NCBI GenBank assembly: GCA_039931955.1
Contig: JBDTQY010000055.1
Location: forward strand, 1 to 25,814
Reading direction: 5' to 3'
DNA from: Chloroflexota bacterium
GTDB lineage: Bacteria > Chloroflexota > Limnocylindria > Limnocylindrales > CSP1-4
Length of the DNA stretch: 25,814 nucleotides
In this document: piece by piece, positions 791 through 13,032 of the stretch
How the letters are laid out: every line of letters starts with the position of its first letter
How positions within the stretch are numbered: the stretch's first letter is position 1
Notes under the pieces: model-generated
The model's input: the letters and a program-made list of their open reading frames with translations, nothing else
Databases searched by the model: none
Told to the model about the DNA's origin: nothing
Translations under genes and position numbers: made by a program

Positions 791-3030
791 GGTCGGATTC
801 CACGAAGGACAACGACGGAGTGCCCAGCGACGGTAAGCGAACTGCCGGCAACCAGGTGGCTGCCCGAGTCCGGAAATGGCTCGTCGGCAGCTGTGTCGAG
901 TTCGACTTCCCACACCTCAGCGCGGCCGACATCGGGGAGAACGAAAGCCCGTGAATCCGCCTGTGGATTGAAGGCGATGAAGAAGGGCTCATCCGCGATG
1001 GGCGCGCCATCCGGGTCCGTGATCCCCTCGCCCGAAATGAAGACACCGATGCCCTGCTCCAAGGGGTCGTGCCAGTGCTCGACGCCCATGCGCGTGCCAT
1101 CGGGTGCGGTCCACTCGATCTGGTGCGCCCCCTCGCCATGGATGGGTCGATCCTGGAACCAGCGGCGTCGTCGGAACGCGGGATGGTCCCGGCGGAAGGC
1201 GATCAGCTTCCGGGTGAACGCCAGGAGGTCGCGATCCGCCCGTTCCCAGTCCAGCCAGGAGACCTCGTTGTCCTGCGCGTATCCATTGTTGTTGCCACCC
1301 TGCGTCCGACCGATCTCGTCGCCGGCGAGGAGCATCGGGACGCCCTGGGACAGGAACATCGTGGCCAGCAGGTTGCGCTGATCGCGGGCGCGGGCCTCAA
1401 GGATGGCGGGGTCGCTCGTCGGACCCTCCGCCCCATGGTTCCACGAGCGGTTGTGGTTCTCGCCGTCCCGATTGTCCTCGCCGTTCGCCTCGTTGTGCTT
1501 GTCGTCGTAGGCGACCAGGTCAGCCATTGTGAACCCGTCATGGGCGGTCACGAAGTTGACGCTCGCGTACGGCCGCCGTCCGTTGGAGGCGTAGAGGTCC
1601 GAGCTCCCGGTCAGGCGAAAGCCGAATTCGGCGAGAGGCTCGGGCGTTCCGCGCCAGAAATCCCGGATGGCGTCCCGGTACTTGCCGTTCCACTCGGACC
1701 ACTGTGGTGGGAAGTTGCCGACCTGGTAGCCCCCCTCCCCGACATCCCACGGTTCTGCGATCAGCTTCACCTGGTTGATGGTCGGGTCCTGGTGAATGAG
1801 ATCGAAGAAGGCGGACAGCCGGTCGACTTCGTGAAGCTCGCGTGCCAGGGCGGCCGCGAGGTCGAAACGGAACCCATCCACGTGCATGTCCTGGATCCAG
1901 TAGCGCAGGCTGTCCATGATCAGTTGGAGGCTATGGGGGTGGCGGACGTTGAGGGTGTTGCCGGTCCCCGTGTAGTCCATGTAATGCCGTCGATCGTGGT
2001 TGAGGAGGCGGTAGTAGGCCGCGTTATCGATCCCCTTGAACGACAGTATCGGACCGAGGTGGTTTCCCTCGGCCGTGTGGTTGTAAACGACGTCCAGGAT
2101 CACCTCGATGTCTGCCGCGTGGAGCGCCTTGACCATCGCCTTGAACTCGCGGACCTGCGCGTTGCCCGTGTTGACGCTCGCGTAGCCGGCATGGGGGGCG
2201 AGGAACCCGATGGAGTTGTATCCCCAGTAGTTCTGAAGGCCCCGCTCGACGAGATGAGCGTCGTGAATGAAGTGATGGATCGGCAGCAGCTCGACGGCGG
2301 TCACCCCGAGCGAACGGAGGTAGCCGATGGCGACGGGATGGGCCATACCGGCGTACGTACCCCGGATCTCGGCCGGGATGTCCGGATGGGTGGCCGTGAA
2401 TCCCTTGACGTGGACCTCGTAGATGACCGTCTCGTTCGGCGCGTGGCGGGGCGGACGATCGTCGCCCCAGTCGAAGTCAGGATCCACCACGACTGAGCGG
2501 GGCATGAACGGGGCGCTGTCGTCGTCGTTGGTGCTGCCTTCCGGGTCCTCGAATCGGTACGGGAAAACCGCAGGATCCCAGGTGACGCGACCCTCAATGG
2601 CCTTGGCGTACGGGTCCAGGAGCAGCTTGGCGGGGTTGCAGCGGTGCCCGTTGGCGGGATCCCACGGACCGTGGACGCGGTACCCGTAGCGCTGACCGCC
2701 CACGACGTGCCGCGCGTAGACGTGCCACACGTGGCCGGTTGATTCGGGCATCGGGATCCGGGTCTCCGCGCCGCCCTCGTCGAACAGGCAGAGCTCGACG
2801 CGCTCGGCAGCCTCTGAGTAGAGCGAGAAGTTCGTACCCCAACCGTCAAAGGTGGCGCCGAGCGGGTAGGGAACTCCCGCCCGGAAACCGCTCTCGCCTG
2901 GCGAGGTGGTTGTCCGGTTGGCCGTGGGTTCGGGAGGTTCATCGGCCGGGCGTGGCTGGTTGAGGTCTGTCGCGTTGTGAATGAGTATCTCCTGGGCTTG
3001 CCGGCCGCAATGGTGGACGAGGGGCGGCAA
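787..3030 (-). CDS. glgX: Glycogen debranching enzyme GlgX/TreX (isoamylase, GH13 + CBM48)
   Basis: Motifs PYPLGAT, YEVHVKGFT, NYWGYNSIGF, DVVYNHTAEG, DGFRFDLA, KLIAEPWD, NFVTAHDGFT. Start uncertain: TTG 3030 has no SD, and an SD-supported ATT lies at 2982. Confidence 0.96.
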   Translation of the reverse strand: MPPLVHHCGRQAQEILIHNATDLNQPRPADEPPEPTANRTTTSPGESGFRAGVPYPLGATFDGWGTNFSLYSEAAERVELCLFDEGGAETRIPMPESTGHVWHVYARHVVGGQRYGYRVHGPWDPANGHRCNPAKLLLDPYAKAIEGRVTWDPAVFPYRFEDPEGSTNDDDSAPFMPRSVVVDPDFDWGDDRPPRHAPNETVIYEVHVKGFTATHPDIPAEIRGTYAGMAHPVAIGYLRSLGVTAVELLPIHHFIHDAHLVERGLQNYWGYNSIGFLAPHAGYASVNTGNAQVREFKAMVKALHAADIEVILDVVYNHTAEGNHLGPILSFKGIDNAAYYRLLNHDRRHYMDYTGTGNTLNVRHPHSLQLIMDSLRYWIQDMHVDGFRFDLAAALARELHEVDRLSAFFDLIHQDPTINQVKLIAEPWDVGEGGYQVGNFPPQWSEWNGKYRDAIRDFWRGTPEPLAEFGFRLTGSSDLYASNGRRPYASVNFVTAHDGFTMADLVAYDDKHNEANGEDNRDGENHNRSWNHGAEGPTSDPAILEARARDQRNLLATMFLSQGVPMLLAGDEIGRTQGGNNNGYAQDNEVSWLDWERADRDLLAFTRKLIAFRRDHPAFRRRRWFQDRPIHGEGAHQIEWTAPDGTRMGVEHWHDPLEQGIGVFISGEGITDPDGAPIADEPFFIAFNPQADSRAFVLPDVGRAEVWEVELDTAADEPFPDSGSHLVAGSSLTVAGHSVVVLRGIRP

Positions 3031-3155
3031 ACCGTGGCCGTGGTGGGCCCGACCTGACCGTAGGCGAGGTCGGGCAGCGTGTCAAACGACCGCGTCGTGC
3101 GCAGGTGCAGGGCTCGGGGCGTTCCCGACGCTCAGAATCAGGCCGATGCGCCGCG

Positions 3156-3161
3156 TATCAT
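3156..3161 (+). promoter_or_regulatory. Putative -10 element TATCAT, 8 nt before ATG 3170 (likely leaderless)
   Basis: TATCAT-ctgcggcg-ATG with no SD between them. Confidence 0.55.
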
Positions 3162-3169
3162 CTGCGGCG

Positions 3170-3880
3170 ATGTGCGAGCACTACGTCGCCCGTGCGGCGT
3201 CCCCGTTCCGGCTCGACGAACTCTGGCCGTTCACCGAGCGCCTTGAGCGCTTCGGGATCGCCGGGTTCGGCTGGGGAGCATCGTGGCTCGAGCCGGCGGG
3301 TTCCATCGGCAGCTATCGCGAAGTTCAGGCGTTCCGGGACGATTCCGGGCGCGAGCGTGTGGGCCGCGTCGAGACGACCGCTGCTCTGGTGCATCTGCGA
3401 CGGCCGTCCCGACTCTCCACGCTGGGGATGGCCGACACGCAGCCGTTCGACGATCCTGCGGGGCGCTTCAGCCTCAGTCACAACGGCGATCTCCTCCACT
3501 ATCGGCCGTACAGAGCCCGATTTCTGGAGCAAGGACGTCTCTTCGGCAGGGCCGACAGCGAGGTCGGCGCCCGATGGCTTGAAGACGAGTGGAACGATGG
3601 CGAGCCCGTGCCGCACCTGATGGCCGCACTGCACGACACCTTCGGGGGCCAGGCCAACCTGGCGGTCCTCGTCAAGGACGGGTCGGTGCACCACTACGCG
3701 GGGAATCGTGAGAACCCCGTCTTCACCTTCAGGCTCGGCGACATCGGCCTCGCAAGCACCGGCCTCTACTCGCTGGATCGGTCGCTCTTCCGGTTCGCGG
3801 CCAAGGGGGCCACGGAGCGCCGGCTGGTACCCATCCGGAGCACTGCGTCCCTCGACGCCGGGGGCCGACTGGCCGTGTAA
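3170..3880 (+). CDS. Class II glutamine amidotransferase-like Ntn hydrolase (EgtC/YafJ/Dug3-like)
   Basis: A start at 3170 gives M-C-E, placing the nucleophilic Cys at position 1 after Met removal. GFGWG, HLRRPS, TQPF, SHNGDL, DSEV and GQANL segments match the GATase-II pattern. Confidence 0.8.
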   Translation: MCEHYVARAASPFRLDELWPFTERLERFGIAGFGWGASWLEPAGSIGSYREVQAFRDDSGRERVGRVETTAALVHLRRPSRLSTLGMADTQPFDDPAGRFSLSHNGDLLHYRPYRARFLEQGRLFGRADSEVGARWLEDEWNDGEPVPHLMAALHDTFGGQANLAVLVKDGSVHHYAGNRENPVFTFRLGDIGLASTGLYSLDRSLFRFAAKGATERRLVPIRSTASLDAGGRLAV

Positions 3881-3942
3881 CAACAAGTCCCCGGTGGGCG
3901 TCTCTCGCGTGACCAGGTGACACCGGAATGAGGGACTGGACC

Positions 3943-5277
3943 GTGGACTTGGAAATCGGCTCGACGGAAGGTGGTACCGCGAACAGGCCGACCGAACAAC
4001 TCCCCGCATCCCAGCTCGTCCGGCTATCGCTGTACTGGCTCGGGCTCTCGGCGATCTTCATCGGGGTCTCCCAGATCCTCTCTGGTCGGATCCAATTCGA
4101 GGAGGGAGGCCCGCTGTTCACGGGTCGCGGGACAGAGGGTCAAACGCTCTTCCTGCTGACCTTTGCAGGGGCGATTATCGCGGCCCTCGTCCAGCCCACC
4201 GTGGGTACGATTTCCGACTACACGATCAGCCGCTGGGGGCGACGCAAGCCGTACATCTTCATCGGCTCCGTCCTGGACATCCTGTTCCTGTACGGCGTCG
4301 CGTCATCCAATTCGATCCTCTCGGTTGCGGCGTTCATGGCCCTCCTGCAGTTCAGCGCGAACTTCGCTCAAGGCCCGTTCCAGGGCTACGTTCCGGATCT
4401 CATCCCCGCCAAACAGGTCGGCCTTGCCTCGGCCCTCGTAGGCCTCTTCCAGGTCCTCGGGAATGGTGCCGGCTTCGGTATCGCCAACTTCGCGATTGCC
4501 ACCAACAATTACTTCCTTGGCACCATGGCTCTTGGCGCGCTCGAACTTGCAACGATGGTCTCCGTCGTGTGGAGGGTCCCCGAGGGTCGGAACGCCGAGC
4601 CAAGACGGGGGCGCTCCTGGTTCACGATCGCCCGCCAGGCCTGGAGCACGGACATCCTCCGCGACCGGAATTTCGTCTGGCTCGTGGGGTCGCGCTGGTT
4701 CTTCCTCATGGGCGCCACCATGCTCATCAACCAGTCCATCTTCTACTTTGCACAGTCCTTCGGATTCAGCCGGGAGGAGACCGGCGGCACGAACTTCCTC
4801 GTCTTGGTGGCGGCGCTCGTTGGCAACGTGCTCACGGTCTTTCCGGCCGGTCGAATCTCGGACCGGGTCGGCCGGAAGCCGGTGATCTATGCGGCGTGCG
4901 TGGTTGCCGGCAGCGGAATGTTGATCGTCGCGCTGGCGCCAGCCATCCCGATCGTCGTGTTCGGGGCCGGGCTGTTCGGGGCTGGTTCGGGGATGTTCCT
5001 TGCCGTCGACTGGGCACTGATGACTGACATCATCCCGAAAGCTTCTTCGGGGCGGTACATGGGCATCAGCAACGTGGCCACCGCCACTGCTGGGATCGTG
5101 TCGCTGCTCGTCGGCGGCAAGCTCATGGACATCGTGAACGGCGTGGCGACCTATGGCGACGGCCCGCGTGCGGCCTTCCTCCTGGCGGTCGCGTTCTTCG
5201 CGCTCGGCGCCATCCTGCTTCGACCAGTCGTCGAGCCGAACCGTCGTGGGGACCTCATGGCCCAGCCCTCGTCATGA
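3943..5277 (+). CDS. MFS transporter (resembles sucrose/maltose SLC45/GPH-like group)
   Basis: About 12 hydrophobic segments; GTISDYTISRWGRRKPY, QGPFQGYVPDL and GRISDRVGRK motifs. GTG 3943 follows GAGGGA; alternative ATG at 3928. Confidence 0.88.
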   Translation: MDLEIGSTEGGTANRPTEQLPASQLVRLSLYWLGLSAIFIGVSQILSGRIQFEEGGPLFTGRGTEGQTLFLLTFAGAIIAALVQPTVGTISDYTISRWGRRKPYIFIGSVLDILFLYGVASSNSILSVAAFMALLQFSANFAQGPFQGYVPDLIPAKQVGLASALVGLFQVLGNGAGFGIANFAIATNNYFLGTMALGALELATMVSVVWRVPEGRNAEPRRGRSWFTIARQAWSTDILRDRNFVWLVGSRWFFLMGATMLINQSIFYFAQSFGFSREETGGTNFLVLVAALVGNVLTVFPAGRISDRVGRKPVIYAACVVAGSGMLIVALAPAIPIVVFGAGLFGAGSGMFLAVDWALMTDIIPKASSGRYMGISNVATATAGIVSLLVGGKLMDIVNGVATYGDGPRAAFLLAVAFFALGAILLRPVVEPNRRGDLMAQPSS

Positions 5278-5432
5278 GCTCGGCGGCGGCGCCCGCGACC
5301 TTGAGGCGCCCACACCCTCACCTGTGTCGCCGGTCCGATTGGGCCTTGTAAGGACTGAGCCCCTCGCCTACCGTACGAAGTCGGAGCGGCGAAGGCGCGG
5401 CCCTGGCGCCTCGATCCGGGTGGGGGTGGACG

Positions 5433-5894
5433 ATGAGCATCTCTTCGATGGCGCGCTTGGCGGAAGGCGACTCGGCTGAGCCCGACTCAACCTTGCAGAG
5501 CGCGATCAGGCTGATTGCCAGTTACATCCCGGCCGAAGCGATCGCGACGTACATCGTCGTCCTCGGCCTGCTGTCGCCCGGAGCCGAAGCATCGTCGGAT
5601 CAGGTCATGGCCATTCGCCTCGTCTGCTTCGTGATCGGGGTTCTGGTCGCGATCGGACTGGCGTTCGTGACCTTCAAGGGCGGAGCCCTCACACGCCGCG
5701 AGCAGCAGCGGAGGCAATGGCTCGTTGCCGCGATGGCTGCCATTTCGTTTGCGATCTATGCCGCGGCCATGCCGTCGTTCTTCTTTCAGGCGGACATCCT
5801 GACCATCCCCTGGTCGCAGTGGGCCGCCGTCCTGGCGATCATCGTTGCCGTGATCACCCCGACGATCGCGAAGAGCCTTCGACTCCGCAAGTAG
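5433..5894 (+). CDS. Hypothetical membrane protein, 153 aa, about 4 TM helices
   Basis: ATG preceded by GGGGGTGG; four hydrophobic stretches; fills the gap between the MFS gene and cphB. Confidence 0.8.
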   Translation: MSISSMARLAEGDSAEPDSTLQSAIRLIASYIPAEAIATYIVVLGLLSPGAEASSDQVMAIRLVCFVIGVLVAIGLAFVTFKGGALTRREQQRRQWLVAAMAAISFAIYAAAMPSFFFQADILTIPWSQWAAVLAIIVAVITPTIAKSLRLRK

Positions 5895-5979: not shown

Positions 5980-6819
5980 ATGAGCGACGGGACAGTCATC
6001 GTCATTGGCGGCGCTGAGGACAAGATCCGCGACCGGATCATCCTCAATCGCTTCGTGGCGCTCGCCGGCGGTGAAGACGCGATTATCGTCGTCATCTCGA
6101 CGGCCTCTTCACTCGGGACCGAGGCGGGGGAGCGCTACCGCGCGATCTTCACGGAGCTCGGGGCCAGGACGGTTCGGCCGCTCCACGCGGTGACCCGGGC
6201 CCAGGCGAACGACGAGACCTTCGCGCGCGCCGTGCGCGATGCGACCGGCGTCTACCTGACCGGCGGCAACCAGCTACGCCTCTCGTCCATGATCGGCGGA
6301 ACGCGCCTGGCAGAGGCGATCCTGGACCGGTTCCACGAGGGCGCCGTCGTTGCCGGGACCTCGGCCGGAGCGTCGGCCATGTCGAGTCACATGATCGCCT
6401 TCGGGGCTTCCGGGGCCACGCCCAAGCATCGGATGGCTGCCATCGCCGCGGGCCTCGGTGTATTGCCGGGCGTGATCGTTGACCAGCACTTTCAGCAGCG
6501 CAATCGCCTGGGACGACTGCTCAGCCTGATCGCCCAGAACCCGAGCCTCCTCGGCATCGGGGTGGACGAGGACACCGCGGGTGTGGTTGGCCCCGATCGC
6601 GTCATGGAGGTCATCGGCCGGGGCAGCATCACCATCGTTGACGGGGCGGCCGCCGAAACCGACGCCTGGGACGTCCGCGGGCACCGGCCGGTCATGATCA
6701 GTGGCGTCGTCCTGCATTCGCTGCCAGCCGGCTACCAGTTCGACCTCAAGCGCCGGCATCGGATCACAACGCCTGCGCTCAAAGTCCTTCCCGGTGGAGA
6801 GGCCGCCGCGTCCAGCTAG
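5980..6819 (+). CDS. cphB: Cyanophycinase (peptidase S51), intracellular type
   Basis: VIGGAEDK, LTGGNQLRL, catalytic GTSAGA, DQHFQQRNRLGRL and GVDEDT motifs; no signal peptide; directly upstream of cphA. Confidence 0.95.
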   Translation: MSDGTVIVIGGAEDKIRDRIILNRFVALAGGEDAIIVVISTASSLGTEAGERYRAIFTELGARTVRPLHAVTRAQANDETFARAVRDATGVYLTGGNQLRLSSMIGGTRLAEAILDRFHEGAVVAGTSAGASAMSSHMIAFGASGATPKHRMAAIAAGLGVLPGVIVDQHFQQRNRLGRLLSLIAQNPSLLGIGVDEDTAGVVGPDRVMEVIGRGSITIVDGAAAETDAWDVRGHRPVMISGVVLHSLPAGYQFDLKRRHRITTPALKVLPGGEAAASS

Positions 6820-6868: not shown

Positions 6869-9667
6869 ATGGTCGAGGCCGCCGCGAAGACCAGCCGCGC
6901 CAAGCGCTCGCGAGCGGTCACGACGGAGCGACCTGCGCCGGACCTTCGCATCCTGGAGACCCGGATCCTGCGCGGTCCCAACTTCTGGTCTCGCTCACCG
7001 GTCGTCCGAATGCTGGTTGATCTCGGGTCGCTGGAGCAGTTCCCGAGCAACACGATCCCGGGCTTCGTGGACGGACTCGTCGCGTGGATTCCCTCGCTCG
7101 AGGATCACGCCTGCTCGCTCAACCGGCGTGGTGGCTTCCTGACGAGATTGCGGGACGGCACCTGGGCGGGCCATGTCTCCGAGCATATCGCCCTCGAGCT
7201 GCAGAACCTTGCCGGGACGGACGTCCGCCACGGCAAGACCCGCGGCGCCGGCACATCGGGCCAGTACAACGTCGTCTACGAATTCCGCGAGGAGACGGTG
7301 GGGGTCGAGGCCGGCAAACTTGCCGTCCGGATCGTCAATCACCTCGTTGATCCGTCGGCCGATCCGGATCTCGACTACATCACGGAGCTTGAGCGGCTCA
7401 TCCGTCTCGCGGAGCGCGCCGCGTTCGGACCTTCCACCCAGGCGATCCTCGATGAAGCGGCCTCGCGCGATATCCCGTTCATCCGCCTGGACCGGCACTC
7501 GCTGGTCCAGCTCGGCCAGGGGGTCCACCAGCAGCGAATCCGGGCGACGATGACGTCACGGACGTCCGGAATAGGCGTCGATATCGCCAGTGACAAGAAC
7601 CTGACGAACCGACTCCTCGATTCGGCGGGCCTGCCGGTACCGAAGGCGGATGTGGTGGAAGACGTCGAATCGGCCGTGGCCGTCGCGCGACGCCTTGGCT
7701 TCCCGTGTGTGATCAAGCCGCTCGACGGCAACCACGGTCGAGGCGTCCACCTGGATCTCCAGTCCGACGAGGACGTTCGGGAGGCATTCGCCGGCGCACT
7801 CCGCGAATCGCGCTCGGGCGAGGTCGTCGTCGAGACGTACATCCACGGCAATGACTACCGATGCCTCGTGATCGGCGGCCGCGTGGCAGCAATCGCCGAG
7901 CGTGTTCCGGCTTCAGTCACGGGCGATGGTGCCCTGACCGTTCGGGAACTCGTCGATCGGACCAACGCCGATCCGAGACGCGGAATCGGCCACGAGAAGG
8001 TGTTGACGAAAATCCGGATCGACGAGCCCGCGGAGGAGCTCGTGCGCGCCCAGGGCTTCGAGCTGGACGGGGTGCCGCCAACCGGGGTCCGAATCAAGCT
8101 GGCGCTGACCGGCAACATGTCGACGGGCGGCACCTCGATCGACCGGACGCTTGAGGCGCACCCTGACAACGTCGAGATCGCCGAAATGGCGGCCCGGGTG
8201 GTGGGTCTGGATATCGCCGGAATCGACTTCATCTGCCCCGACATCACCGTTCCCGTGCGCGAGACGGGCGGCGCGATCGTCGAGGTCAATGCGGCACCTG
8301 GTTTCCGCATGCACACCCACCCGACCGAGGGCGAGCCGCAGTACGTCGCCCGGCCGGTCATCGACCTGCTCTTTCCGGCGGGCGCGCCTTCACGAATCCC
8401 GATCATCGGGGTGACCGGCACCAACGGCAAGACGACGACTGTCCGGATGATCGCCCACATCCTCAAGCTGATGGGGCGCCGGGTCGGCATGACATCGACG
8501 GATGGAATCGTCGTCGATGGGCGGACGATCAAGCGCGGCGACATGTCCGGTCCAAGGTCGGCCCGGATGATTCTCCAGAACCCGACGGTTGACACGGCGG
8601 TCTTCGAAGTTGCCCGTGGCGGCATCCTCCGTGAGGGCCTCGGCTACGACCGCAACGACGTGGCCGTCGTCACCAATGTGACCGCCGACCATCTCGGGCT
8701 GGGCGGCATCGACACCGTTCGTCAGCTGGCTGATGTGAAGGGAGTCCTCGTCGAGTCGGTGCCGCGGTCAGGCACTGCCGTCCTGAACGCCGACGACGTC
8801 AACGTCGCCCGGATGGGCCAGCGCTGCGATGGCGCGGTCATCTACTTCTCGATGCAGACGCAGAAGGGTCAGCCGGGTTTCGACCGGATCGACGGCCACG
8901 CGGGCAGGGGTGGCGCCGCGTTCGTGATCAAGCCGACACCCGAGGGCGACCAGATCGTCCTGCGTCACGGTCCTCGAACGATGCCCGTTCTCTACACCCA
9001 CCTGATCCCGGCGACGTTCGGGGGCAAGGCCCGGATGAACGTCGCGAACGCCCTCGCCGCCGCCGCCGCCGCCTGGGCGGCCGGCGCCCATCTGCACGAT
9101 ATCCGGCAGGGACTGCGGACCTTCACGACGTCGTTCTTCCAGGCGCCGGGTCGCCTCAACCTGGTGGAGGTCAGTGGGGTCCGAGTCGTGATCGACTATT
9201 GCCACAACGTGGATGGGATGCGGAACCTGTCCGACTTCGTCAACAAGATGATGCTGGACGGCGGGATTCGGTCCGGCCGGGCGATCGGCGTGATCGGCGT
9301 TCCCGGCGACCGGCGCGACGAGGATATGCGCGACTATGGAGCGCTGGCCGCCACCGCCTTCGACGAGATCATCGTCCGCGAGGATCGCAACCTTCGAGGC
9401 AGGGCCCCGTCAGAGACCGCTGACCTGGTGGCCGCCGGCGTCGCCGGGGCCAAGGCGGACGGAGTACGGACAGGCGCGACGGAACTGATCCTGGACGAAC
9501 TGACGGCGGTCCGGGTGGCGCTCCGGCGGGCGAACCCGGGTGACCTGCTGGTGATGTGCGTCGATGATGCCATCGCGGTCTACAAGGAGACGATGGCCGC
9601 CGCGGGCGAAGGCCTCGGCACGACGGCCTTCGCCGATCCGGGCGAACTCGAGGCACCCGAGGGCTGA
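6869..9667 (+). CDS. cphA: Cyanophycin synthetase CphA1 (N + ATP-grasp G + Mur-ligase-like M domains), 932 aa
   Basis: ATG 6869 after GGAGG. Motifs RGPNFWS, Cx19HxxEH, FGPSTQAI, VIKPLDGNHGRGV, NMSTGGTS, EVNAAPGFRMH, GTNGKTTT, EVARGGILREGLG and DYCHN. Confidence 0.97.
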   Translation: MVEAAAKTSRAKRSRAVTTERPAPDLRILETRILRGPNFWSRSPVVRMLVDLGSLEQFPSNTIPGFVDGLVAWIPSLEDHACSLNRRGGFLTRLRDGTWAGHVSEHIALELQNLAGTDVRHGKTRGAGTSGQYNVVYEFREETVGVEAGKLAVRIVNHLVDPSADPDLDYITELERLIRLAERAAFGPSTQAILDEAASRDIPFIRLDRHSLVQLGQGVHQQRIRATMTSRTSGIGVDIASDKNLTNRLLDSAGLPVPKADVVEDVESAVAVARRLGFPCVIKPLDGNHGRGVHLDLQSDEDVREAFAGALRESRSGEVVVETYIHGNDYRCLVIGGRVAAIAERVPASVTGDGALTVRELVDRTNADPRRGIGHEKVLTKIRIDEPAEELVRAQGFELDGVPPTGVRIKLALTGNMSTGGTSIDRTLEAHPDNVEIAEMAARVVGLDIAGIDFICPDITVPVRETGGAIVEVNAAPGFRMHTHPTEGEPQYVARPVIDLLFPAGAPSRIPIIGVTGTNGKTTTVRMIAHILKLMGRRVGMTSTDGIVVDGRTIKRGDMSGPRSARMILQNPTVDTAVFEVARGGILREGLGYDRNDVAVVTNVTADHLGLGGIDTVRQLADVKGVLVESVPRSGTAVLNADDVNVARMGQRCDGAVIYFSMQTQKGQPGFDRIDGHAGRGGAAFVIKPTPEGDQIVLRHGPRTMPVLYTHLIPATFGGKARMNVANALAAAAAAWAAGAHLHDIRQGLRTFTTSFFQAPGRLNLVEVSGVRVVIDYCHNVDGMRNLSDFVNKMMLDGGIRSGRAIGVIGVPGDRRDEDMRDYGALAATAFDEIIVREDRNLRGRAPSETADLVAAGVAGAKADGVRTGATELILDELTAVRVALRRANPGDLLVMCVDDAIAVYKETMAAAGEGLGTTAFADPGELEAPEG

Positions 9668-9725: not shown

Positions 9726-9824
9726 CTAGCGGCCGAGGTTCAGGTTGGCGCTCACCGAACGGACGATCAGCCAGATCTCGCCGATCGAGATGACGACAAG
9801 TGCGATGCCGATGGCCATTTCCAC
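9726..9824 (-). CDS. Small single-TM protein, 32 aa: MEMAIGIALVVISIGEIWLIVRSVSANLNLGR
   Basis: Not in the ORF track. GGAGGAG lies 7 nt before GTG 9824; stop TAG at 9728-9726; one hydrophobic helix. Confidence 0.6.
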   Translation of the reverse strand: MEMAIGIALVVISIGEIWLIVRSVSANLNLGR

Positions 9825-9918: not shown

Positions 9919-11670
9919 TCAGCGACTGGACCGGTCGTCCAGGCGCGGGACCAGGCCGATGAGTTCGGCGGTCGTCTCCACGGGACGAAATCGCAATCTC
10001 TCGAGCAGCGCGAAGACTCCGTCCCGATCCTCGTGGCACAGGAGCACCACGATCCGGGCGGCGTCGGGTCGGGCACCGTCGGTGGCGCCCGCGCCGTTCA
10101 ATTCGGCGCCCAGTGCGACAGCCTCGGACTCGTAGACCGGAATGTCCTCGGTCCATCCACCGGCCATGGCGCCCGCCCGAAGTTCGCCCACGACCGACTC
10201 GCGTGACCGCCCGCGCAGGTAGCGCTGGGTCTCCTTGATGGCGATCCGCTGCGCTCTGACGGCCGCGATCTGTCCGAGGCCCCGCAGGGTGTCATCCGGC
10301 CGATCGCCGGCCGTGCCGATGACCACCGTGATGGGCGTGACCCTGCCTCCTGCTCCACCGGCGATCCCCTCGGCAAGGTCCATCAGGACACTGAGGCCCG
10401 CTTCGTTGTGGGCGAAATCGATGATCGCTACCCGGTTCCCGTTACGGAAGACGTTGGTTCGACCCGGAGATTCGGTGGATGTGGGCCGGAAAGCCAGGAG
10501 GCCCGTCCTGGCCTCGTCGATGGTCACCCCGAGCGCGCGCGCCCCTGCAGTCGCGGCCAGCGCGTTGGCGATGTTGTGGCGGGCGAGACCAGCCATCGTG
10601 ATCGGGATATCCCGGACCGCTGCGATCGGGGTCCAGGTCGTGCCCTCCGCCTCGCCCAGATCCCCCCGTCGGACCAGGTAGGCACGACCCCCAGCGGCCA
10701 GATGGCGACGCACCGGGCCCGAATCGGAACCGCGGAGGGTGAACAATGCGACCCGACTTCGAACGGTTCGGCTTACCGCCCGGACGAGCGGGTCATCGGC
10801 GTTCAGGATCACCCAGCCATCCGGCTTGGTAATCCGGCAGATGGTGGCCTTGACCTCGGCCAGCTCCGGCAGCGTGTGGATTCCTTGGAGATCCAGATGG
10901 TCGGAGGTGACGTTCGTCAGGATGCTCGCGTCGTTCGATTCGTAGCCCACCCCGCGGAGGACCATCCCGCCGCGTGCGGTCTCCAGGACGGCGACATCGA
11001 CGTCCCCCCGGCGCAGGATCTCGTGCGCGCCGCCGGGACCCGTCCAGTCGCCTTCGTCCACCATCCGTTCGTCGACCAGGACGCCGTCCGAGGTCGTCGT
11101 TCCAACATGCCGTCCCGCCTGCAGCAGGATCCGGGTCAGGAGGCGCGTCGTGGTGGACTTGCCGTTAGTGCCCGAGATGGAAATGATGGGGATGTGTCGG
11201 TCAGCGTCCCGGATCCACGGGGGAGGGGTGGTGCTCGCCCCGCGGATTCGCTCCGACCATGCGTCGAGGAGCCGTTGCTGGGAGCCCGTCAGGCGCGCCC
11301 GGTGCGCTGGCGTCGCGGCCCGATCGACGAGGGCGACCGATGCCTCGGCGATGAGACGGGCCCGCTCGGCACCGGCCCATGGCCACGTGACGATCCAGTG
11401 GCCAGGGTCCGATGAGCGGTGGGCCCGGATGCCCCCAATGCCCTCGCCGTGCTCCGCGCGCAGTCTTCGCGCCCAGCCTGTGAGCGTCAGGACCGGCTCC
11501 GGCCAGAGTCGCCGTGGAACGCTGGCGCCGAGGCGGACGAGCGAGTGGCGACCCGGATCGCGCTGCCCGTACCAGGAGCGGCGCCTTCCGACGGCGACCT
11601 CAACCTTGACCACCGGCTCGAGCCGGTAGACGTTGGGTCCCTCGAGCAGGCGGATCTCGATCAATCGCAC
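9919..11670 (-). CDS. CphA-derived protein: degenerate N domain + Mur-ligase-like M domain, no ATP-grasp domain (583 aa)
   Basis: N-terminus RLIEIRLLEGPNVYRLEPVVKVEV aligns with CphA RILETRILRGPNFWSRSPVVRMLV. M-domain motifs SGTNGKSTT, LETARGG, TNVTSDHL, LNADD, NIANALAA, PGRTN, DFAHN, AGDRPD and YLRGR. The 797-aa ORF-track call is over-extended upstream. Confidence 0.88.
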   Translation of the reverse strand: MRLIEIRLLEGPNVYRLEPVVKVEVAVGRRRSWYGQRDPGRHSLVRLGASVPRRLWPEPVLTLTGWARRLRAEHGEGIGGIRAHRSSDPGHWIVTWPWAGAERARLIAEASVALVDRAATPAHRARLTGSQQRLLDAWSERIRGASTTPPPWIRDADRHIPIISISGTNGKSTTTRLLTRILLQAGRHVGTTTSDGVLVDERMVDEGDWTGPGGAHEILRRGDVDVAVLETARGGMVLRGVGYESNDASILTNVTSDHLDLQGIHTLPELAEVKATICRITKPDGWVILNADDPLVRAVSRTVRSRVALFTLRGSDSGPVRRHLAAGGRAYLVRRGDLGEAEGTTWTPIAAVRDIPITMAGLARHNIANALAATAGARALGVTIDEARTGLLAFRPTSTESPGRTNVFRNGNRVAIIDFAHNEAGLSVLMDLAEGIAGGAGGRVTPITVVIGTAGDRPDDTLRGLGQIAAVRAQRIAIKETQRYLRGRSRESVVGELRAGAMAGGWTEDIPVYESEAVALGAELNGAGATDGARPDAARIVVLLCHEDRDGVFALLERLRFRPVETTAELIGLVPRLDDRSSR

Positions 11671-11778: not shown

Positions 11779-13032
11779 ATGGAGACCATGACCGACCCCG
11801 GCGGCACTGTGACCCCCGACGAGCTGTCGCGCCTGGAGCAGGCCGTGACTGTCTCGATGCCCCGCTTCCTCGACGAACTGGAGAGACTCTGCAACGTTGA
11901 CTGCGGGAGCTACTCTCCGGCCGGTGTGAACCTGGTGGCGGCCTGGGTCGCAGCCAGGTTCGAGCAGCTCGGCGGGACCGTGGAGCGCCGCCCGGACCCA
12001 TCCGGGTCGTACGGCGACACGATCATCGGAACCTTTCACGGCGGCGCGCCCAGCGGACCCCGGATCCTCCTGATCGGTCATATGGACACGGTCTTTCCCG
12101 ACGGGACGGCCGCACTTCGTCCATTCCGCATCGATGACGGGATCGCCAGGGGTCCGGGAGTGACCGACATGAAGGGCGGCCTCCTGGCGGGGATCCATGC
12201 CCTCGAGGCGATCCGGCAGATCGGCGGCAGCTGGTCGGGTCTCCCGTTCGAGCGGATCGTCTACGTGGCCAATCCCGATGAGGAGATCGGATCGCCCAGC
12301 TCGACGCCCCACATTCGCGAGATCGCTGCCGATTCCGATGTGGCTTTCGTGCTTGAGTGTGCCCGAGCCAACGGGGATTTCGTCTCTTCACGGAAGGGTA
12401 TCGCCGACCTCAGGTTGACGATCCACGGACGAGCCGCCCACGCCGGGGTGGAGCCGGAGCAGGGGAGGAACGCCATCGTCGCGGGAGCACGCATGGTGGA
12501 GCGCATCCAGGCCCTCAACGGACGCTGGCCGGGCGTGACCGCCAACGTCGGCGTCTTCCAGTCCGGAACGAGACCCAACGTCATTCCGGACCTCGCCCAT
12601 CTCGAGGTCGACGTCCGGGGCGTCGTCCGTGATGCCCTCGAGGCGGCCGTGGCCGCGGTCCACGAGATTGCCGCCGATCCGGGCGTTCCAGACGTCACAG
12701 TGGAGGTCGAGCAGATCGCGGGCTGGCTGCCCATGGAGAAGCTCGAACGATCGGGCCGTTTATCGGACCACGTCATGGGCATCGCCCAACGCCTCGGTTT
12801 CATGACGACGGACGTGGGCACCGGCGGCGCGTCGGACGCAAACACGACGTCGGGGATGGGCGTGCCCTCGATCGATGGCCTGGGCCCTGTAGGCGGGCGC
12901 GACCACTCACCGGACGAGTACCTCGAAGTCGATTCAATCGGTCCGCGGACCACACTCCTGGCTGCGCTGCTTCTCGCCGTCGGTCGAGACCCTGAGGTCG
13001 CTGCCTGGAGGTCGGATCCGCGGCGTCCCTGA
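11779..13032 (+). CDS. M20 family metallopeptidase, carboxypeptidase G2-like
   Basis: GHMDTV, GPGVTDMKGG, DEEIGS, GRAAHAG, GGASDAN and DGLGPVGGRDHSPDEY motifs. Start 11779 or 11788. Confidence 0.92.
   Translation: METMTDPGGTVTPDELSRLEQAVTVSMPRFLDELERLCNVDCGSYSPAGVNLVAAWVAARFEQLGGTVERRPDPSGSYGDTIIGTFHGGAPSGPRILLIGHMDTVFPDGTAALRPFRIDDGIARGPGVTDMKGGLLAGIHALEAIRQIGGSWSGLPFERIVYVANPDEEIGSPSSTPHIREIAADSDVAFVLECARANGDFVSSRKGIADLRLTIHGRAAHAGVEPEQGRNAIVAGARMVERIQALNGRWPGVTANVGVFQSGTRPNVIPDLAHLEVDVRGVVRDALEAAVAAVHEIAADPGVPDVTVEVEQIAGWLPMEKLERSGRLSDHVMGIAQRLGFMTTDVGTGGASDANTTSGMGVPSIDGLGPVGGRDHSPDEYLEVDSIGPRTTLLAALLLAVGRDPEVAAWRSDPRRP

Follow-up and report, generated by a model that had tools for sequence, protein, structure and literature searches.

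Cyanophycin synthesis is currently held to need one enzyme, CphA1, with CphA2 serving in recycling, and CphA1 is composed of an N domain, an ATP-grasp (G) domain and an M domain of the Mur-ligase type, the Mur-ligase family being characterised by ADP-forming chemistry that proceeds via an acyl-phosphate. In the current work, we describe a gene from a Chloroflexota bacterium (NCBI GenBank assembly GCA_039931955.1, contig JBDTQY010000055.1, positions 1 to 25,814; this whole stretch of 25,814 nucleotides is referred to below as the window), which specifies a CphA relative consisting of an N and an M domain in the absence of an ATP-grasp domain, and which is therefore named N-M. Its product is judged, from sequence comparisons, to have about an even chance of being an ATP-dependent side-chain ligase that acts in trans on Asp-ended cyanophycin chains.

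Domain content and reading frame of N-M

The gene and the domains of its product are located as follows:

9919..11670, minus strand: N-M gene, encoding a 583-residue CphA relative without ATP-grasp domain (GTG start, TGA stop; from open reading frame and translation, orthologs, dN/dS and AlphaFold2)
11206..11670, minus strand: N domain, residues 1-155, of diverged CphA type and without the Cx19HxxEH metallopeptidase site (hhalign, Foldseek, motif scan)
10471..11205, minus strand: Mcore, residues 156-400, with P-loop, Mg ligands, D257-H258 and K274 (Pfam Mur_ligase_M, invariant columns)
11152..11172, minus strand: P-loop G167-T-N-G-K-S-T173, matching the TeCphA1 P-loop at 495-501, which includes K499 (PMC9427784)
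9991..10470, minus strand: Mlid, the Mur-ligase C-terminal domain, residues 401-560, complete, with G455-D-R457 and Y484-L-R-G-R488 (weak Mur_ligase_C match, confident model)

A missing ATP-grasp domain had been proposed in a preliminary description of this DNA, made from the sequence alone, and Pfam, a partial match to TIGR02068 and an AlphaFold2/Foldseek comparison now all agree on the N + M architecture. The N-M protein matches Mur_ligase_M (PF08245) across residues 165-375 (72.6 bits, for a cut-off of 24) and, weakly, Mur_ligase_C (PF02875) across residues 403-498 (21.5 bits, below the cut-off of 28.4); both families are present in 64/64 aligned relatives, Mur_ligase_C at E ≤ 1e-3. No Pfam ATP-grasp family matches the N-M protein, and nine such models match the neighbouring CphA. 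The CphA1 model TIGR02068 aligns with N-M (360 bits, below its cut-off of 850) at model positions 475-838 only. As had been stated at the outset, the GTNGK P-loop is located at residue 167 in N-M as opposed to residue 517 in the neighbour when the latter is counted from the ATG at 6869 (residue 573 of the long cphA open reading frame), corresponding to approximately 350 absent residues. BLASTP aligns the two proteins across the M domain at 38% identity (160-489 versus 566-902), and the N terminus of N-M (1-40) with residues 82-121 of the neighbouring CphA at 35% identity (E 9e-5).

The resemblance of the N-terminal portion to CphA was borne out, yet it extends beyond the segment originally recognised. 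A comparison of profiles, derived from the N regions of 25 family members and from 12 CphA1 N domains, aligned this region (approximately 158 residues) over 148 columns with a probability of 98% and an E value of 1.9e-13 (hhalign), and residues 1-158 are, by this profile evidence, a full but diverged CphA N domain. Pfam Cyanophycin_syn (PF18921) does not match the window N-M protein and matches 3/64 relatives, two of the 64 matching DUF4938. The Cx19HxxEH motif, also reported as missing in the preliminary description, occurs in 0/47 N-M family members including the window protein, the corresponding stretch of CphA1 being shortened in N-M and devoid of the Cys, His and Glu residues.

The AlphaFold2 model, generated from a 64-sequence alignment, has a predicted local distance difference test score of 92.7 and a predicted template modelling score of 0.93, with residues 31-50 at low confidence. 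Its top Foldseek match is SuCphA1 (7lgj_A; E 3.7e-39, TMq 0.75), with the N and M domains aligned in the same relative arrangement as in SuCphA1 and the G domain skipped, followed by MurE structures (E 1e-20 to 1e-22). Sequence scores support an affiliation of the M domain to CphA and not to MurC-F, FolC or CapB: PDB entry 7LG5 scores 239 bits as opposed to 58 bits for the best Mur ligase, MurE, and the 360 bits of TIGR02068 compare with 86-99 bits for the NCBIfam MurE models, whose cut-offs are 257-373 (TIGR01085, 86 versus 257). PF01225, the UDP-binding N-terminal domain of Mur ligases, does not match N-M, and a separate MurE is encoded elsewhere in the same genome (contig C15).

On the minus strand, the frame ending at 9919 extends without a stop codon as far as 12312 and comprises 797 codons. 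A start upstream of 11670 was rejected: the first 214 codons are Arg/Gly/Pro-rich and of an off-frame type (67% G+C), and orthologs are approximately 584 residues long. The GTG at 11670 is the homolog-supported start and yields 583 residues. More than 100 ortholog clusters of approximately 584 residues are 68-81% identical to the window protein; orthologs begin with V/M-R-L-(I/V)-E, four of them starting V-R-L/V-I/V-E at the same site. The ratio of non-synonymous to synonymous substitution (dN/dS) against four orthologs is 0.16-0.27, the N-terminal 155 codons and the remainder behaving alike. Because start and length are supported by orthologs and dN/dS is low, N-M is a genuine and intact gene under purifying selection. 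A scan of its flanks for promoters and terminators retrieved nothing exceeding shuffled expectation, and the sequencing runs that contain the sequence are soil-metagenome DNA, with none among RNA runs.

An ancient family outside the CphA1 clade

An exhaustive search of 1.8 billion cluster representatives returned 1157 matches at E ≤ 1e-30, many of which are 530-600 residues long, have RxLxGPN at the N terminus and carry their P-loop at about residue 150-190. Among length-matched candidates, 5583 relatives scored at E ≤ 1e-3. The hallmarks of the family, all present in the window protein, are RxLxGPN, the P-loop near 150-190, the sequence (Y/H/F)-L-R-G-R and the absence of a G domain.

In a maximum-likelihood tree of M domains (LG+C20, 85 rows, 401 columns, five MurE outgroups), the M domains of full-length CphA1 constitute one clade with support of 100/99, and those of N-M proteins fall outside. 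N-M splits into clade A, a 100%-supported clade that includes the window protein, and clade B, consisting of approximately 570-residue 'RRLTGPN' proteins. The best topology is (MurE,(A,(B,CphA1))), in which B plus CphA1 has support of 95/81; a single N-M clade is not rejected by the approximately unbiased (AU) test (p 0.37). The split between N-M and CphA1 is old. A tentative reading, to be taken together with the outcome of the AU test, would have N-M as the older form and CphA1 as its descendant via insertion of the ATP-grasp domain between N and M. In both the N-M and the CphA parts of the tree, copies from families f3 and f17 (designations used in the current work for families of genomes, as are f1 and f30) group together with f1 apart, and this agreement fits long co-inheritance of the two genes.

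A recent deletion within the neighbouring cphA was rejected as the origin of N-M, given the identity of only 38% and the placement of its M domain outside the CphA1 clade. The earlier characterisation of N-M as the opposite reduction to that of CphA2 thus holds for its domain content, G being absent and M complete, but not for its descent, N-M belonging to an old family and not being reduced from the neighbouring CphA.

A different G-less protein was also encountered: P0230 (L152:5001-6602), of 533 residues, has an M domain nested in the CphA1 clade beside Bacteroidota-like CphA1 and an N domain that weakly matches PF18921. Its gene, complete and without a cphA in its surroundings on a contig of 22 kb, probably represents an independent loss of the ATP-grasp domain.

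Catalytic residues and departures from CphA1

Residues K171, S172, S194 and E230 of N-M align with TeCphA1 K499, T500, T522 and E558, which bind ATP and Mg (PMC9427784), and D257-H258 align with D585/H586 of SuCphA1, a double mutation of which inactivates its M domain (PMC9262961). N-M and SuCphA1 numbering differ, according to sequence alignment, by an offset of 328 up to residue 259. K274 corresponds to the position of the carbamylated lysine in MurD/E/F, and N290, D293, R404, D418, H421, G455-D456-R457 and R486-G-R488 are also invariant or nearly so. This catalytic set, which is common to CphA1, is (near-)invariant across the 64 relatives, themselves only 30-40% identical to the window protein, and the M domain of N-M thus appears to be catalytically competent.

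Other positions set N-M apart from CphA1. Where CphA1 has (R/K)-E480-D481 (Asp in 27/28) followed by x-(N/D)484-L-R-G-R, position 481 of N-M is T/K/L/M and never Asp in clade A, with E/D preceding it and a one-residue insertion before position 484; the latter is Tyr in 45/46 clade A and 20/32 clade B proteins (Y/H/F in 30/32 of clade B), again followed by L-R-G-R. R458 of CphA1 (GDR-R) is replaced by P/T/S. The CphA-specific loop, GD-M-S-GP-(R/K)-S-A in CphA1, reads GD-(W/Y)-(T/S)-G-(P/F)-G-G-A in N-M, which represents the replacement of M209 by W/Y and of R/K213 and S214 by G-G. Furthermore, Arg replaces E239 in both N-M clades and E279 in clade A. Relative to CphA1, N-M has lost acidic residues at two positions and gained basic ones at two. 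Within these regions N-M and CphA1 share, without variation, residues G207-D208-x-x-G211 of the loop and the RGR motif, neither of which occurs in MurE.

The 480-488 segment of N-M and CphA1 aligns with the DNPR motif of MurE, although the alignment in this loop is uncertain; in Mur ligases, the DNPR motif binds the incoming amino acid. Because of the lost acidic and gained basic positions, together with the changes in the shared segment and loop, the acceptor or the incoming amino acid would not be recognised by N-M as it is in CphA1, and one or the other probably differs from that of the CphA1 M domain.

Linkage of N-M to cyanophycin genes

The preliminary description placed N-M opposite a complete cphB-cphA pair, and this arrangement was confirmed by the annotation of the neighbouring genes:

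5980..6819, plus strand: cphB, cyanophycinase (TIGR02069, 263.8 bits; Peptidase_S51)
6869..9667, plus strand: cphA, complete CphA1 (N domain with Cx19HxxEH, G and M), convergent to N-M (TIGR02068, 1142 bits, model positions 1-856; Pfam Cyanophycin_syn, ATP-grasp, Mur_ligase_M/C)
11779..13032, plus strand: M20 (CPG2-like) metallopeptidase, divergent from N-M (Pfam Peptidase_M20, M20_dimer)

The start codon of cphA is uncertain, its frame being open from 6701. The stop codons of cphA and N-M are separated by 251 bp, and the gap between N-M and the divergent M20 gene is 108 bp.

Homologs of N-M had been expected to be linked to cphA, and co-occurrence was determined in a sample of 301 genomes across the phylum. 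A CphA-type match was found in 39 genomes, of which 36 carry both a full-length cphA and N-M, three carry cphA alone and none carries N-M alone; both genes are absent in 9/15 genomes of the window's own family. Synteny was analysed by tblastn of the window proteins on 19 loci of 20 kb. The order cphB, cphA, convergent N-M and divergent M20 is kept in 5/5 f1 and 5/5 f3 loci, despite the f3 N-M proteins being only approximately 40% identical to the window protein, and the M20 position is likewise kept in L072; the M20 gene is conserved at this site in two families of the class. In four f17 loci cphB-cphA is convergent with N-M and M20 is absent.

Elsewhere, other clade A members on metagenomic contigs are convergent with cphA, and a clade B operon, which occurs in Gammaproteobacteria, consists of an Amidohydro_1 (iadA-like) gene, cphB, cphA and N-M directly downstream, with gaps of 6-9 bp. 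Named carriers were obtained from a scan of GTDB species genomes. N-M is convergent with, or within 5 kb of, cphA in Terrabacter aerolatus NBRC 106305, Terrabacter sp. BE26, two Kribbella strains, Thermomicrobiales and an Acidobacteriota metagenome-assembled genome (MAG), and in tandem with cphA in Luteimonas lutimaris JCM 16916, Plesiocystis pacifica SIR-1, Lysobacterales and Steroidobacteraceae; in Planctomycetaceae it is located approximately 3 kb downstream of cphA. Linkage is therefore kept in at least six phyla, being convergent in Chloroflexota, Actinomycetota and Acidobacteriota, and tandem in Gammaproteobacteria, Myxococcota and Planctomycetota. No N-M gene was found within 8 kb of cphA in most Bacteroidota, cyanobacterial and clostridial cphA loci. 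The genomic coupling of N-M to cphA/cphB is tight and ancient.

Several further arrangements were noted among these loci. In Kribbella, the genes between N-M and cphA specify an extracytoplasmic function (ECF) sigma factor, a Dyp peroxidase and a PCuAC protein, which provide no functional hint. In seven f3 and f17 loci (L037, L039-L041 and L043-L045), the convergent cphA and N-M frames end 0-20 bp apart, with an overlap of approximately 17 bp in L044, and transcription of one gene must therefore enter the other. One f1 genome (G261:C37:4996-6849) has its N-M match split in two pieces in different frames, and three f3 genomes (G097, G009 and G058) have one TAG stop in the match; frameshifts, pseudogenes or assembly errors are possible explanations. 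Finally, Pseudoduganella violacea (L143) and a Betaproteobacteria MAG (L145) carry tandem CphA1-like genes, both with a G domain and the upstream one with a weakly matching M domain, which represents another kind of cphA duplication than the N-M family.

Proposed function and alternative explanations

According to the proposed function, N-M would be a stand-alone ADP-forming amide ligase of the CphA lineage, with its N domain packed against Mcore and Mlid. It would phosphorylate the free beta-carboxylate of the terminal Asp of a cyanophycin-type chain, or of a short (beta-Asp-Arg)n-Asp, and would then ligate an amino acid to the activated Asp. Being devoid of an ATP-grasp domain, it would not extend the backbone, and it would complete, cap or diversify the polymer of the neighbouring CphA1 rather than duplicate it. 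Side-chain ligation relies on N plus M as the structural unit by which the polymer is held, and a protein of exactly this composition with an intact active site would most simply perform the M-domain half-reaction in trans.

A number of points weigh against this predicted assignment. The partner CphA1 has an intact M domain of its own, which makes a plain addition of Arg look redundant. The placement of the differing residues in the pocket follows from analogy with the MurE DNPR motif only. The N domain is poorly conserved beyond the RxLxGPN hairpin and one strand, and may just stabilise Mcore instead of holding the polymer. Moreover, linkage is incomplete: in seven f30 genomes (6 Mb) cphA and N-M are unlinked, N-M being located beside proS/proC and housekeeping genes, and some Actinomycetota have no cphA within 8 kb of N-M, as is the case for some Sphaerobacteraceae loci.

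A narrower version of the side-chain ligase proposal, advanced tentatively, is that N-M attaches a residue other than Arg to the terminal Asp of cyanophycin, or serves bare poly-Asp that the M domain of CphA1 does not. The preliminary description had entertained such another substrate, and the residue differences in the predicted pocket give this idea some support. If true, a second enzyme would determine the length or composition of natural cyanophycin in many non-cyanobacterial phyla, where the polymer would carry caps or mixed side chains.

An alternative is that N-M is a dipeptide or primer synthetase, joining free Asp with Arg or another residue into beta-Asp-X, which would start CphA1 chains or reverse an M20 dipeptidase-like reaction. 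De novo initiation by CphA1 is slow and its minimal primer is (beta-Asp-Arg)-Asp (PMC9262961), in two families N-M lies divergent to the gene of a CPG2-like M20 peptidase, and in the tandem clade it shares an operon with an iadA-like dipeptidase. Nevertheless, the M20 pairing is missing in f17 and Actinomycetota, the N domain is kept throughout the N-M family, and the M domain of CphA1 requires a chain ending in unmodified Asp (PMC9427784). Furthermore, the primer-generating Cx19HxxEH motif is present in 28/28 partner CphA1s, compared to 31/37 lone CphA1s, these counts being non-independent as the genomes are related. There is no sign in these counts that N-M compensates for primer dependence, and priming compensation is not supported as its role. 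The making of beta-Asp-X primers, which the preliminary description had also considered, is thereby weakened, and the synthetase explanation as a whole is unlikely.

It is similarly improbable that the ligase substrate of N-M is not cyanophycin but, for example, another Asp/Glu-containing peptide or metabolite, and that N-M is found near cphA through shared nitrogen regulation or common descent. The pocket residues that differ from CphA1 would suit this explanation, as would the unlinked f30 copies and the Actinomycetota and Sphaerobacteraceae loci mentioned above. However, N-M occurs without cphA in 0/301 genomes, the linkage is held in two gene orders, and the loop and RGR motif shared with CphA1 are those by which both depart from MurE.

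A mainly non-catalytic role, in which N-M would bind CphA1 or the cyanophycin granule as a subunit with a regulatory or structural task, appears very doubtful. Paralogous N and M domains could use the interfaces of the CphA1 tetramer, in which Mcore contacts Gcore of other protomers (PMC9427784), and the M domain of CphA2 persists without activity (PMC10273328). In contrast to the truncated M domain of CphA2, however, Mlid of N-M is complete, its ATP-binding and catalytic residues are invariant across clades with only 30-40% identity, and W346, the aligned counterpart of W672 in the SuCphA1 tetramer, lacks conservation among family members. That N-M is a decaying, functionless remnant of a duplicated cphA, as a shorter paralog beside a complete gene might suggest, is refuted by its intact frame, its dN/dS values, its 5583 relatives, the position of its M domain in the tree and its confident structural model.

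Other neighbouring genes

The M20 protein scores 280 bits against NF004788 (glutamate carboxypeptidase), below the cut-off of 349. As iadA, iaaA and cphZ are not recognisable within the window, this metallopeptidase is a candidate beta-Asp-Arg (N-acyl-arginine) hydrolase. The stretch separating cphA from the convergent N-M contains a 32-codon open reading frame (9726-9824, minus strand), for which tblastn retrieved an equally placed counterpart in just one close relative (L033; 59% identity, E 5e-6). Upstream of cphB (2981-5894, plus strand), the window specifies an Ntn/GATase_6-like protein, an MFS transporter and a 153-residue protein without a family match, the first two genes being syntenic in f1 loci only.

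Comparison with known systems

No description of a G-less CphA relative was found in the literature, including PMC9262961, PMC9427784, PMC10273328 and PMC10206079, nor is such a protein discussed in a 2023 bioinformatic survey of cyanophycin genes; the statement in the preliminary description that no enzyme with this architecture has been characterised agrees with these findings. NCBIfam and Pfam contain no model dedicated to the family, and the name 'CphA3' was found in the literature for Aeromonas beta-lactamases. As a Mur-type ligase of the CphA lineage, N-M belongs to a known biochemical class, while its architecture and its probable role are new. Across two gene orders and at least six phyla, a second and apparently active ligase has accompanied cphA, which probably points to a step in the production, completion or diversification of cyanophycin that is omitted from current models. 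If it adds another residue or caps chains, this would explain natural variation in cyanophycin composition and length and would offer a tool for tailored polymers. The presence of N-M in cultured bacteria (Terrabacter, Kribbella, Luteimonas lutimaris and Plesiocystis pacifica) makes these predictions directly testable.

With MurE and the other Mur ligases (MurC-F, Mpl, MurT, FolC, CapB/PgsB, CfbE and the pMur ligases), N-M shares the Mur_ligase_M/C folds, the P-loop, the DH motif and the carbamyl-lysine position, yet it scores far below every cut-off of these families, a CphA N domain replaces the UDP-binding domain, and YLRGR replaces DNPR. With CphA1 (TIGR02068; structures 7LG5/7LGJ/7LGQ from Synechocystis sp. 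UTEX2470 and 7WAC/7WAE from Trichodesmium), it has in common a homologous N domain, an M domain of 34-43% identity, the ATP/Mg-binding and catalytic residues, the GDxxGP loop and the RGR motif. It differs from CphA1 in having neither the G domain of approximately 330 residues, so that the backbone would not be extendable, nor Cx19HxxEH, in residues 209, 213, 214, 239, 458, 481 and 484, and in the one-residue insertion before Y484. Like CphA2 (PMC10273328), N-M is a reduced CphA1 relative that keeps one catalytic domain together with a non-catalytic N domain; CphA2, however, keeps G and has a truncated and inactive M domain, whereas N-M is without G and possesses a complete and, as judged from its residues, apparently active M domain.

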